DNA of 64,000 bases from Carcharhinus longimanus (Eukaryota): contig JASCQW010000132.1 in the NCBI GenBank assembly GCA_030264375.1, positions 92,556,898-92,620,897 of the forward strand, written 5' to 3'. The stretch's first letter is position 1; each line of letters opens with the position of its first letter. Both the position numbers and the translations under genes were made by a program. Of this stretch, positions 1 through 46,643 are shown one piece after another. Under the pieces are notes generated by a model. It was not told the origin of the DNA. It did not search any database and saw only the letters and a program-made list of their open reading frames with translations.

Positions 1-830
1 ATCAGAAATGGTCAAGGTTCAATCAACTTCTAATATGCAATGCTGGCGAAATAGAAGAGGAAAGATAATAAATGGGTTATGTTACTTTATTAGTTTGTTG
101 TCACTGACCTTCTACACTTAACCTACAGAGCTACAGCACGTTGCATTAACCTACTAAACTTTAGACTACAAACATCAAACCAGAAATGCAATCTAGCGGC
201 TGTAAGTTCCGACCATGCGTCACATAATAGTACTGGAAGTAACAATCAGCAAAGCCCCAGCGTGGATCACAATTATAGTGATCACTGTGGAAATGTAGCA
301 GCAACCGGCAAACTAATCACAGGCAGACCCGTGAAAGTCAAGATTACTCATGTTTTCTCGCCTGTAGCCGCCAGGGAATCTTAGTGTGTGATTATAATTG
401 CCTAATATTGGGCTGAAACTTTCCTTTTTTTACCAACTTCATCTGTGAATAATTTAAAATAATAAACGGATTGCTACTATGACTCAGTAACGCCGCGTTA
501 AGTCTTGCTGAAAGTTCTGGTGATAGCCTGTTACACATTGGAGCCCCGCTTTTATTTTATTTGAAGGACGTGATTCTAATAAAGTAGAACCGAGTAAATA
601 AAGATGCATTTAGACGCTTTTGCAGTTTACCGATTACATATGGTGACCTTATTGCAGTTGTAGTGACGCAGCCCTCCATGGAGGAGGGGCTTGTGTCCAA
701 CTGTGCCATTCGATTGGCTCATCCCGCCTGTCGTGCTGCGGAGGTATCTCTAATCATATTCAGCGTGTTTGCACAAGAAATGTCAGCCTGAACTGGATAT
801 CTTCTGCTTTCGCCAAATTACCCCACAACA

Positions 831-10689: not shown

Positions 10690-10938
10690 ATATCCCTTTG
10701 CATAAAAAAACATACGGAGTTGCTATATAAAATTATCTCTATAAAAGATTGACCCTGTTACAAGCTGCGGATTGATTTATATTTTATTGTTGTTTTTGAA
10801 TCACGTGAGTAACTGATCCAATGGCGTGGAAGTGCGTCTGCACCATATTAGCAGAGTGTACTTGTCGCGGCGGTAAGTTGTTACACTGAAATCTGCTCTT
10901 TCATATTTTCAGAGGCGCTTGCTGTGTCATTGGCGAGA
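10690..10938 (+). promoter_or_regulatory. HoxA9 promoter / conserved leader
   Basis: CACGTG 10802-10807 and CCAAT 10818-10822. Also CCTTTGCATAAAAA, TGATTTAT and AGTTGTTACA..GAAATCTGC blocks resembling the mammalian HOXA9 5' region as I recall it. Confidence 0.8.
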
Positions 10939-19674: not shown

Positions 19675-19843
19675 ATGCGATTGGGCGACTGGATCACATG
19701 GTCAGGTCACGTGAAAAGGAATAAGTCGGGCCGAAGGAAAATGGGTGTTTGGTGTAAATCGGGGGTGTAATGCTGCCATATATCACGCTATCTCGTAAAA
19801 CCGACACTGAAGAGCCTTGGCCAACAAATCACCAGACAAAATT
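19675..19843 (+). promoter_or_regulatory. HoxA7 promoter / conserved leader
   Basis: ATTGG 19680, CACATG 19695, CACGTG 19708, then CTCGTAAAACCGACACTGAA and ACAAATCAC..AAAATTATG. Confidence 0.8.
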
Positions 19844-20237
19844 ATGAGTTCGTCGTATTATGTGAATGCTCTTTTTCCCAAATATACGGCGGGGACATCC
19901 GTTTTCCAGAACGCGAGTGGCTTTACAGAAGCAACTTCTTGCGCTTTTGCTACCAACTCACAAAGATCCGGCTATGGAGCGGGCGCCAGCGCCTTCCCAG
20001 CCCCGATGGCCGGGCTGTACAATGTTAACAGTGCAATCTATCACGGTCCTTCCATGTACAACACAGGTTATAATCTAAATTCAGATTCCTACAACCTGCG
20101 CTGCTCTGCCTTAGACCAGAACATTCCAGTTCTTTGCAGCGATCTCAGCAAACAGGGTTGCGAAAAATTGGATCAGACAAACGTGCACCCTCAAGCAGAG
20201 AGCAATTTCCGGATTTACCCCTGGATGAGGAATGCAG
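19844..20237 (+). CDS. hoxa7: HoxA7 exon 1
   Basis: MSSSYYVNALFPKYTAG...NFRIYPWMR hexapeptide; donor G|GTATGG at 20237/20238. Confidence 0.96.
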
Positions 20238-42568: not shown

Positions 42569-45424
42569 CCGCGTCTAACAAATATGAAAATGTCGCCTCA
42601 CGAATGGCACGCCTTGTTACTTAACAAAGACTGTCAATGTATAAGATTAATAAGAAATAAAATGCACACGGTGTCACTTTTCGGTCACTTCCAAACTTAG
42701 CTTAGCGTATCCCTTACGAAATCTCGTTTCATTGAATAAAATCTTTTGTTTTGTTTCCCGTGTTGAAGTCCAATAAACGCACAGTTGTGCAGCTCTGTGG
42801 GATGTGGTGCAAGCCTGCTCGAAGATGTATCTTCGAAATGTGCCATTTTATTTGTTTTATTTTGTTTGTGAGCTGGACACCGGCTGTTTCAGCCATATGC
42901 CCCAGATAGAATTGGAAACAATCAGATTTTCATCATGGTACAATCTATCTGATAAATCCTGACCCGTGCTGATGGACTCAGTCGGTAAATGAAGAAATTA
43001 TGACACTCCTCATCATCTAAACTACTGATTTGCTGTTCGGAGGAGAATTTAAACTGGTAACGTCTAATTTCTGATTTATTAAATCGCGAAACAACCCCCC
43101 CCCCACCCATGCACATAACTTGACTAATCTTTTTTATGTAAAACCGATTTCCTCATCTCGACACTCTCTAAAGTATAAATTTGATATAAACTCTTAAAAC
43201 ATACACGTTTTGCAAATGTCGTAAAACGCGTTAACTTTGCCTTTCGCTTTAAAATGGCTGTAAATCTACCCTTGCAGTAAAAATGTCAAATGTACACGCA
43301 GGCGAGGTAACACTTGGGGGTCCTGGCTCCATCGCTGTTTATTATGAAAAAAACTGCAGAGGCGAATGACCTGCATTTGCTGGTCAAGTAATGCCTTGTG
43401 TTTATGCGATAAGAACCTTTATTTTGCATTTTTCTACAAAGCGCTTAAATACACAAATTGGCCCAGCTAATTATTCGACTGCGCTGTGTACAGGCAAGTT
43501 ACGTAGTCAGAGGAAAGAAGATGCACCCCATGCCTGTCAAAGAGAGAGAAAAGCACATTTTGGGAGTTAAATGTCATGGGGAGGCTTTTCTAAGCAAAAA
43601 TAAAGTTTTTAGCAAAATCATTTGGATCCGTTTACATTATAAGACTTTCGCAGCTTTTAAAATTATATAATGAATGATCTAAATATAAACATTTACACAA
43701 GATGTCCTTGGTGAATACAATAAAATTGTGCAAAATATAAGCACTGTTTCCATGCAGATTTTCCCTTTGTATAGTGAGTGGTGGAAACAAACATCTGTTA
43801 ATTACACTGGAAGTCAATTAATTTTGCTGTTCGATACTTAGTTGAAAGCATTCTAATGGACGATTATTCTGCGCATTAAAGCAGGGTAGTTGGTAAATGC
43901 ACCCCAGAAACAGTGTGCTGTGATTGTTGAAGAAGGTTCAGTCTGATTAAATGTTGGCTTGCGTGCCCGGATACAGTATATCGTTCAAACATTAAAACAT
44001 TATGATGCATTCTTGATTGACAAGAACTCATGTTGTGAATCGATTATATTTCAGGGAAGAAGGCGTATTGCATATGGCTACTTTGAAAAAAATAATGTGC
44101 AGTGCACCCAAATTGTCACTTTTCTATTTGGTAAATTTCATTCTGCGGGCCATTTGGTGTGGATAAGAATTCAAATCTAAAATATTATACAATTTTAATC
44201 ACATTAAGTTATATGACCAGCCAATTAGCTTGCGATTTTTTTACGGCAGGTTATTTTTACTTCTTCTAAAAGGAGTCAACATTAGAAGGCTTTATCAATT
44301 ATTGCTGGTATGTTTTGAGTTTCTGAAACGGATTACGTTTCTTGATATAACAAATCATACTGTATGCAGATTTAATTGTGTGATTGTAGTAGGGCACCTG
44401 AAATAGAATTGACGCATTTAACATTCAGTTATTGGGTATGTTTGAAAGGAGCGGTTTGTTCAAAATTCAAATAAACAATCAACAAAACATTTGTCCAATG
44501 CTTTGGAATAGAGTTCTATGCAAATGAATCGTTTCACTGAATAGTTGTGATTTGTTCATTTTTAAAAGATAATATAATTAGTATCTACTTTTATTGGGTA
44601 TCTCGACTAACAAAATGTTCGTTTCCATCGTTTTACTTTATGAAGGTCAATTAAAGCAGATCTGGAAAAAAATCTAATAGTAGAGTATTTCATTAGATAA
44701 GTCACATTACAATCGAACAATTAAATGATAGCATTTTTAAAGAAGATTTATTACGCCAACAGTCTCAATTGATTACATAACGTTTAAGTACATTTGCAGT
44801 ATATGGACAAAATTCTTTACTGTTGCCTGAGTTATTTAACACTTCGACCTGTACTTTGAATGTGCATTAAGTTCTTCAAACAGTTTTTCGGTCTGATCTA
44901 GGATTTTAAATTACTCGTGTTTTGACAACCAAAGCAGGTATTTTCGCAATTTTGTGGGAATTCTTCTTGTAAACGATGCATCTTGGAATGCCTTTGACAG
45001 CAACCCTGCAGTAGAAAGGACAAGCGAGTGCGTTGAACTCTCGTAATTATTTTCCCAATTGTTTAATCCAAACCGCACCTCCCCCCCCCACCACGAAAGC
45101 ACTGAACCATGTTATGTTGTACAGAAACATTTTTAGAAAAGGGTAAACTATTTCAGACGATAGCAGATCTCTATTTAATACTGTCTTGTGATGTTTTCTC
45201 CGTCAACATGCATTTGCAAATATTTGCATTCGATAAAACATCATAATATCATTACCCATTTTAGATTATTTTAAAATGAGTGTCTTCCTGGTTGTTTGAA
45301 TTTTCCTTTTCTATGCTACAACATAATTTCAGGGGAAACGAGATTTTGAATGATAATATGGAATTTTTGACTGGAGTCCATGCATTCATCATTGGTGTAT
45401 TTCCTTATCCGGGGCCCACAGCCA

Positions 45425-45551
45425 CTCACCCCATTGGCTGCTTGCATCACATGAACAGCTAACTTTATACACTTGACCGCAAGTAGGAGGGTTTTATGGA
45501 ACAGAAAAACGACAACGCGAGAAAAATTAGTATTTTGCACTTCAGAAATTA
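45425..45551 (+). promoter_or_regulatory. HoxA4 promoter / conserved leader
   Basis: ATTGG 45433 and CACATG 45448, then AGTAGGAGGG..CAGAAAAACGAC..CAGAAATTAATG, typical of group-4 leaders. Confidence 0.8.
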
Positions 45552-45969
45552 ATGACCATGAGTTCGTTTTTGATAAACTCCAACTACGTTGAGCCAAAAT
45601 TTCCACCTTGTGAGGAATATTCTCAAAATAACTACATACCAAGCCAATCTCCTGAATACTACGAGCGGCCGCGGGACCCTGGATTCCATCATGAGGCACT
45701 ATACCCACAATCAAACTACCCAGAGCCGACCTACAGCTTCAACAATGTCCAAGGCACTGGCAACCAAGACATGTCGCAAAGGGGTCATGTGCAGTCGCAG
45801 GCTAGCCTCCAAAATCACATACCGAGACAGAATCAGCTTTGTGAAGTGGTCCCAATAGCCACACCAGCTTTGTGTAGCCAGAATGCGAAAACCCCCACTG
45901 CCCAGAAAGGTACTCTCAGCAAAGAGCCCATAGTTTACCCGTGGATGAAGAAAATTCACGTTACTACCG
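45552..45969 (+). CDS. hoxa4: HoxA4 exon 1
   Basis: MTMSSFLINSNYVEPKFPPCEEYSQ...KEPIVYPWMKKIHV; donor G|GTAAGT at 45969/45970. Confidence 0.97.
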
Positions 45970-46063
45970 GTAAGTAACTAAAGCTAACTGAAACAATTAA
46001 AATTCAATTGAAATCGGATGTGCGGAATCCTTTCTGTAACTAGCCCTTTCATGAGATTTACGA

Positions 46064-46112
46064 TCACCTAACTGTTAGGTCGGTAATTACAGCGCCCATA
46101 AATTTCATTGCC
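46064..46112 (+). promoter_or_regulatory. HB1 element in the HoxA4 intron
   Basis: GGTAATTACAGCGCCCATAAATTTCATTGCC matches the TAATTA..CCATAAA..TT(T)ATTG arrangement of group-4 intronic HB1 elements. Confidence 0.7.
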
Positions 46113-46317
46113 CTGGATCTTGCTCCTGGCCATGTGTCTTTGATGCTTTTCTAACCTAAATACCCAGAGCCATTTTATTGCAGTAGATTGTTCGCCGTTG
46201 TCAGAACACTTTGAGAAAAGTCTTGTCTTTTAGAACCTTCATTCACGTGCATCTAATCCCATTGTCAGATTCGTGGCTGTATCTGTATTTATGTTTGGTT
46301 ACTTTTGTTTTGTTCAG

Positions 46318-46643
46318 TGAACCCAAATTACACTGGAGGAGAGCCCAAACGGTCTCGAACTGCTTACACGAGACAACAAGTCTTAGAGCTGGAGAAGGAG
46401 TTCCATTTTAACCGTTACCTAACCAGGCGTCGACGCATTGAGATTGCACACACTCTTTGCCTGTCTGAACGCCAGGTGAAGATCTGGTTTCAGAACAGAA
46501 GGATGAAATGGAAGAAAGATCATAAACTGCCTAACACTAAGATGCGTTCTGCTAGCTCATCATCTTCTACAAGCCAGCAAACACAAGTATCCTCCCAGGG
46601 CCCACAGCCAGATGGTTCAGCACCAAATTCATCAAGCCTATAG
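46318..46643 (+). CDS. hoxa4: HoxA4 exon 2 (homeodomain); spliced protein 247 aa
   Basis: TTTTGTTCAG| at 46317. [32 protein letters not shown]...[14 protein letters not shown]. Confidence 0.97.

Follow-up and report, generated by a model that had tools for sequence, protein, structure and literature searches.

The HoxA4 gene of Carcharhinus longimanus is preceded by a short upstream open reading frame (uORF) whose stop codon runs into the first start codon of the gene, and this arrangement raises the question of whether ribosomes are handed from one frame to the other or whether the overlap has a different origin. The window analysed here, a stretch of 64 kb, carries the HoxA cluster in the order A13, A11, A10, A9, A7, A6, A5, A4, A3, A2, A1, and this neighbour order identifies the gene as HoxA4. 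The uORF and its gene comprise the following features:

45496-45552, + strand: uORF of 18 codons, with its ATG (uATG) at 45496-45498 and its stop TAA at 45550-45552, likely part of the conserved element Hox4-CNE-1
45552-46643, + strand: HoxA4 coding region, 247 aa, with exon 1 at 45552-45969 and exon 2 at 46318-46643
45552-45554, + strand: first in-frame HoxA4 ATG, in poor context with T at -3
45558-45560, + strand: second in-frame HoxA4 ATG (M-S-S), with a purine at -3 in 5/5 group-4 leaders

The 18-codon frame and its TAATG, as originally predicted, were confirmed on the sequence, the last A of the stop TAA being the A of the first HoxA4 ATG (a one-base overlap). Further in-frame stops follow closely (TGA at +1 and +7). 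The context of the uATG is poor, with T at -3 and G at +4, as in the class of poor-context Hox AUG uORFs. The coding region has the length of most cartilaginous-fish HoxA4 records. Its second ATG, 5 bases past the uORF stop, has a stronger start context than the first and is, by this context, likely to be the main HoxA4 start.

A lone stop-start uORF at HoxA4 is unremarkable, since 9-33% of shuffled HoxA4 leaders (1000 shuffles per setting) contain one. The part that goes beyond chance is homology, because the same uATG and stop precede HoxD4 of the same genome and a HoxC4-type gene of metagenomic origin (locus L024). A search of the C. longimanus genome returned five candidates, three of which were Hox4 matches and none HoxC4; the Hox4 genes sit in clusters with HoxB10 and HoxD5, and exon 1 of HoxB4 is 96% identical to a shark record. 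HoxD4 of this genome has an equivalent uORF of 19 codons with an identical stop-start overlap, and in HoxB4 neither the uATG nor the first ATG is present. An assembly error was rejected as the cause of the missing first ATG, since the first Met is absent from 15/15 cartilaginous-fish HoxB4 records; a M-T-M-S-S start is present in 15/15 HoxA4 and 15/15 HoxD4 records of the same group. In metagenomes, 145 candidate stretches reduced to only two loci: L024, fish-type and HoxC4-type by its protein, with a stop-start uORF of 17 codons; and L025, HoxB4-type, which has lost the uATG and retained TTAATG. No Hox4 was found in the prokaryote genome collection. The HoxD4 and L024 leaders bear out the expectation that the uORF is old and common to HoxC4 and HoxD4. 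The original prediction also gave the mammalian Hoxc4 uORF as one codon shorter than that of HoxA4; the length agrees with the 17 codons of L024, which is metagenome and not mammalian DNA. The uATG is retained in HoxD4 of the same genome and in HoxC4-type leaders, and is re-framed or lost in HoxA4-like vertebrate records and in HoxB4.

The overlap had been proposed to belong to a cluster-wide stop-start system together with HoxA7, whose uORF does exist:

19770-19847, + strand: HoxA7 uORF, 25 codons, its stop being the TGA within ATGA

Stop-start uORFs precede 4/31 Hox starts of C. longimanus (A13, A7, A4 and D4), against 3.2-5.8 expected from shuffles (P 0.40-0.86; leaders of 80, 120 and 200 nt), in a gene set that omits HoxB7 (exon 1 in an N run), HoxB13 (outside the fetched stretch) and a HoxD14-like locus. 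A cluster-wide system was rejected on account of this chance rate. The HoxA7 case arises because 18/31 Hox genes start with ATGA, which closes any uORF open in that frame; 26-44% of shuffled HoxA7 leaders (1000 shuffles per setting) contain a stop-start uORF.

That the TAATG is a termination-reinitiation signal from which ribosomes restart on HoxA4 is, within or outside such a system, highly unlikely in our assessment. Coupling of this kind at UAAUG or AUGA is known as TURBS in caliciviruses and influenza B (PMC10275272). UAAUG coupling is known from viruses and from a retrotransposon, and the exact overlap is kept in HoxA4 and HoxD4 of the same genome, in L024, and in six HoxD4 and three HoxC4 records. 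Net indels among the uORFs of HoxA4, HoxD4 and L024 are multiples of three, which is expected in 1 of 9 cases by chance, and the amphioxus Hox4-CNE-1 (52 bp) falls in the same class modulo three as the 49-bp copies. HoxA4 shares with TURBS, as described in the available part of PMC10275272, the one-base overlap and a stop-to-start distance below about 20 nt, but TURBS follows a long ORF and needs a structured element complementary to 18S rRNA, whereas the frame upstream of HoxA4 is short and its register is not fixed among relatives. The 18S-complementary core of TURBS is UGGGA. No TGGGA occurs within 110 nt in any of the five group-4 leaders, and the RNA fold of the HoxA4 leader is unremarkable (z = 0.20). 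TURBS coupling was rejected for the missing core and the free frame.

The freedom of the frame was read from proteins annotated upstream through the leader, other-species leader DNA being scarce. For 3/3 available leaders with a uATG the decoding rule returned the correct position, and for shifted frames it assumes the codons of those leaders; it made 66 of 448 protein records decodable for uATG spacing (63 HoxD4 and 3 HoxC4). HoxC4 is stop-start at -53 in 3/3 decodable amniote records, as it is on L024. The 63 HoxD4 records have nine uATG-to-start spacings covering all three frames, only one of which is stop-start: 49 are in frame with the coding sequence, 8 overlap it and 6 are stop-start, in a sample biased to the in-frame class. 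Most in-frame records (43 of 49), among them named ones from zebrafish, pike and seabream, encode an extension of 20 residues, and the overlapping frame occurs in camelids, an anole and some fish. Ray-finned fish HoxD4a proteins (P0092, P0110, P0111, P0155 and others) are widely annotated with an extension of 19-23 residues that begins at the conserved uATG. Among unnamed HoxA4-like records, P0341 has an in-frame ATG, P0342 a changed codon and P0374 no Met at that position. The claim that TAATG is a conserved coupling signal is not supported by these comparisons: 57/63 decodable HoxD4 records of this biased sample are not stop-start, and TTAATG outlives the uATG on L025. Since many relatives have not kept the overlap, it is probably no ribosome hand-over signal; it probably arose as a side effect of a conserved AATTA-ATG at the exon border, a motif kept even when the uORF is absent. 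The deepest branches compared (C. longimanus HoxA4 and HoxD4, and all HoxC4) are stop-start, and some selection on the frame is possible. The free frame in bony-vertebrate HoxD4 weakens the case for selection on any uORF in that gene.

Two published systems bear on the origin of the uORF. The first is a class of AUG uORFs in poor context within short Hox leaders (Ivanov 2022, PMC8892498), features also present at C. longimanus HoxA4. The Hoxc4 uORF of this class is reported as conserved from mammals to fish, lies inside a CAGE-defined leader and was checked against ribosome profiles; Hoxa1 and Hoxa11 uORFs inhibit reporters, and poor-context Hox uORFs repress reporters in a manner responsive to eIF1 and eIF5 (PMC8892498). 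HOXA4 and HOXC4 are both given there a conserved poor main-start context, UUAAUGA, identical to that of HoxA4 here. The uORF list of that paper is mammal-centred and, in the available part, includes neither Hoxa4 nor Hoxd4; Hoxc4 is absent from the reporters, and stop-start overlap, lineage frame changes and a splice acceptor are not discussed in that part. The HoxA4 uORF is most likely a paralogue of the published Hoxc4 uORF, on the inference that the latter is this same frame. Control of Hox leaders by uORFs without IRESs, which the original prediction had put forward, was already published there, and the Hox IRES question is still disputed (PMC12048685).

The second system is Hox4-CNE-1, an element of 49-58 bp in the Hox4 5' UTR of amphioxus, chimaera (two copies), fish, frog, chicken, mouse and human (Yue 2016, PMC5010895), for which no function is proposed in the available text. 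Its length is 49 bp in five records and 52, 53, 54 and 58 bp in others (PMC5010895 Table 4), with 52 bp in amphioxus, and these varied lengths agree with the changing frame of the uATG. The difference between 49 and 52 bp is that between L024 and HoxA4. We take the five 49-bp records to be HoxC4, from chromosome numbers and their equal length. Position, coordinates and length differences make it likely that the uORF lies in Hox4-CNE-1, whose counterpart in PMC13012124 is chordate-UCR-01. The HoxA4 uORF is probably a further member of a published uORF class, likely inside a published conserved element, and the coupling and cluster-wide claims are unsupported. A literature search, covering few subscription papers (older Hoxb4 promoter work, for example, lay outside it), returned no paper on a HoxA4 or HoxD4 uORF or its HoxA4/HoxD4 paralogy, on an acceptor at -6, or on the fish HoxD4 extension and the re-framing into it. 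A term search of the available text of PMC10735318, PMC4729200 and PMC3707753 yielded no Hox4 element, and the accessible parts of PMC2148072 and bioRxiv 10.64898/2026.10.20.760540 held nothing decisive on the Hox4 leader.

Whether the uORF can act depends on where transcription starts, and the leader carries three conserved boxes upstream of the uATG:

45400-45413, + strand: conserved box upstream of the promoter motifs, common to all five group-4 leaders
45433-45437, - strand: CCAAT box (ATTGG on the + strand), a promoter element, to judge from homologous boxes in mammalian Hox promoters (PMC9456764)
45448-45453, + strand: E-box-like CACATG, homologous to the USF-bound HOXB4 site (PMC2193192)

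The upstream box, the reverse CCAAT and the E-box are present in 5/5 group-4 leaders, the E-box being CACGTG on L024 and L025, and the distance from E-box to uATG is 48 nt in HoxA4 and 49 nt on L024. The pair of CCAAT and E-box known from Hox promoters (PMC9456764, PMC2193192) lies about 100-120 bases before the start in the five leaders and accounts for the conservation of the upstream half; the downstream half, with the uORF, is not covered in the available parts of those papers. The ATG inside the E-box begins a frame of 3 codons in each of the three C. longimanus paralogues and likely lies upstream of the transcription start. Short leaders are reported in mammals: the human HOXA4 RefSeq coding sequence begins at base 48 (PMC8892498 Dataset S1), the mouse Hoxa4 leader has 15 nt (PMC9456764), and human HOXB4 transcripts start 65-90 bp upstream (starts at -90 and -65, with the E-box probe at -149 to -129; PMC2193192). 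A human HOXD4 start lies 21 bp upstream.

These starts suggest an alternative in which the uATG is rarely part of HoxA4 mRNA, serving instead as a DNA-level promoter or start-region element (a Cdx- or posterior-Hox-like TTTATGG) or being spliced out, so that the uORF is untranslated. This is a serious possibility, though we lean against it. If the spacing of HOXB4, or that of the Hoxa9 CAAT box (about 60 nt), carried over, transcription would begin at about 45495-45525, at or past the uATG; the short mammalian Hoxa4 and HOXD4 leaders, the retention of the HoxD4 ATG in all three frames and the 3-codon frame that the E-box likewise creates in three paralogues all agree with an untranslated by-product. 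The reverse strand of TTTATGG, a putative Cdx or Hox site, fits the CDX2 consensus (PMC5068786). Against this alternative, the CAGE leader of mouse Hoxc4 contains a uORF, the spacing there being the same to judge from L024, and four lengths in deep branches (-53, -56, -59 and, possibly, -62 in a ribbon worm) are in the stop-start frame.

Removal by splicing involves two further sites:

45479-45484, + strand: donor-like GCAAGT, at which the homologous GT is a donor in bird HOXB4 gene models, with weak exon-side context
45538-45545, + strand: candidate 3' splice acceptor, AG at 45544-45545, six bases before the first ATG and homologous to the bird HOXB4 acceptor

In the computed bird HOXB4 models, which splice the region out, H-L-T is followed by K-L-M in 11 of 38 cluster members, and two other upstream sequences join the same K-L-M (6/38 and 1/38); seven bird records of a first set also read H-L-T then K-L-M. 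The unspliced record P0125 continues through the donor (H-L-T-V-S-R-R), which together with the H-L-T/K-L-M junction puts a GT donor at the counterpart of 45479 and the acceptor at -6 from the first ATG. Use of this -6 acceptor would, on these gene models, remove the position of the uATG. By approximate self-made weights, the HoxA4 acceptor stands at the 89th percentile of 23,278 AG sites, those of HoxB4 and HoxD4 at 91.5 and 97.5, and 33 homeobox-exon acceptors have a median near the 99th. A local HoxA4 intron would be 67 nt long with a GC donor in weak context, and the acceptor is absent on L025 and apparently also in camelid HoxD4. Mouse Hoxd4 transcripts from an upstream promoter are reported to splice into the first coding exon (PMC3185001). 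The acceptor may thus explain part of the motif before the start in some lineages. Nearly all sequences retain the bases coding for K-L ahead of the first Met, whether or not a uORF or an acceptor is present. A homeodomain site, to judge by its consensus, is one candidate explanation for them. The proposal that uORFs explain the hyperconservation of Hox leaders is not supported here, the leader being conserved with or without a uORF and promoter boxes and acceptor covering parts of it. No counterpart of the bird upstream HOXB4 exon was found in HoxA; the HoxB7-HoxB6 interval (G000:C154 about 4101450-4101750, - strand, L006) contains a weak match to that exon (E = 0.097) with a strong donor near it.

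The reading that we prefer, with moderate confidence, is that the 18-codon uORF, set in an ancient Hox4 leader element and likely paralogous to that of Hoxc4, is a leaky-scanning brake on HoxA4 rather than a hand-over device. Transcripts starting between the E-box and 45496 would carry the uAUG. Some scanning ribosomes would initiate there, terminate atop the first HoxA4 AUG and mostly be lost, because a short uORF without spacer leaves scant room to reload; reinitiation after a short uORF is described as using a start some distance away (PMC10275272). The remaining ribosomes would scan past and initiate mainly at the second, stronger AUG at 45558, and HoxA4 output would then track start-codon stringency (eIF1/eIF5), as in Hoxa1, a9 and a11. 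Transcripts that start further down, or that are spliced into the acceptor at 45545, would escape, and the brake would be present only in some transcript forms. The twin uORFs before HoxD4 and L024, the published Hoxc4 uORF, the E-box spacing common to HoxA4 and L024 within 1 nt and the constancy of -53 in HoxC4 favour a brake, and the two in-frame HoxA4 starts and the poor context of the uATG fit one. Mammalian HOXA4, HOXB4 and HOXD4 transcription starts at or past the uATG position argue against it, as do the omission of Hoxa4 and Hoxd4 from the Ivanov list, the free frame of bony-vertebrate HoxD4 and the modest rank of the acceptor.

The shared uORF would place the origin of the published Hoxc4 uORF ahead of the duplications of the vertebrate clusters and tie it to an element of amphioxus and vertebrates that was known but lacked an explanation, with no need for special stop-start coupling or a cluster-wide system. 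The states found among relatives (stop-start, in-frame extension, overlapping, lost and spliced out) form a natural allele series through which function is testable in reporters.

The element may reach beyond vertebrates. Among 23 Deformed-type records with upstream reads, 16 have K-L-M-x before M-S-S, those named being from spiders, a pseudoscorpion, a horseshoe crab and the ribbon worm Lineus longissimus. With K-L left out, 4/23 invertebrate records match vertebrate leader translations (0, 0, 0 and 1 of 300 shuffles scoring better); two of these four hardly differ from each other, and a record that looks unrelated scored 4 of 300. Taken together, these records suggest that the Hox4 leader element extends to chelicerates and a ribbon worm. 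A HOX4 element is already named as known in bilaterians and chordates in the available text of PMC13012124, and the depth found here may have been recognised before. The ribbon-worm record and two others may also have a uATG at -62, which would be in stop-start register.

The invertebrate matches fall in different frames, which indicates conservation at the nucleotide level and bears on the alternative that the uORF encodes a conserved functional micropeptide. The HoxA4 and L024 peptides are similar over most of their length, as a micropeptide would require, but in HoxD4 of the same genome two compensating indels shift the frame of the middle part, and in many fish HoxD4 proteins this DNA is part of the coding frame. 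Such varied reading frames point to the nucleotides and not the peptide; the micropeptide was rejected as frame-shifted, and we give it almost no credence.

A broader and rather improbable scenario is that one nucleotide element has stayed in the Hox4/Deformed leader from the last common ancestor of bilaterians onward, with an ancestral stop-start uORF (possibly at -62 in the ribbon worm, -56/-59 in cartilaginous fish and -53 in HoxC4) toggled in each transcript by the choice of start site and the -6 acceptor, and that in ray-finned fish HoxD4 this AUG came to begin an N-terminal extension of 20 residues. If true, few translational control elements known for body-plan genes would be older.

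Other Hox leaders of the genome contain related features. The HoxA3 (L020), HoxB3 and HoxD3 leaders share an upstream ATG, which in A3 and B3 forms part of a CCAAT motif. This ATG opens overlapping uORFs of 45 and 47 codons in A3 and B3 and a 16-residue in-frame extension in D3, the same pattern of re-framing as in group 4. At HoxB1 exon 1 (G000:C154:4041770, - strand, L027) an in-frame TAA at codon 30 is either a sequence error or a real early stop, and at a HoxD14-like locus (G000:C32 about 40505700-40507400, - strand, L037/L038) an insertion splits the homeobox between two frames, as would fit an intron or a disrupted gene. The HoxA9 leader has no ATG within 100 nt of the start (window 10839-10938), although a 7-codon Hoxa9 uORF is reported from mammals to fish, and carries a strong acceptor-like site (99th percentile) ending 26 nt before the start. 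The HoxA10 (window 780-791) and HoxD10 leaders contain 3-codon uORFs at -51 and -64, and Hoxc10 and Hoxd10 uORFs are listed as conserved only to tetrapods (PMC8892498). The HoxA1 leader (L021) has a 22-codon overlapping uORF at -22, the mouse Hoxa1 uORF being 21 codons long (PMC8892498).
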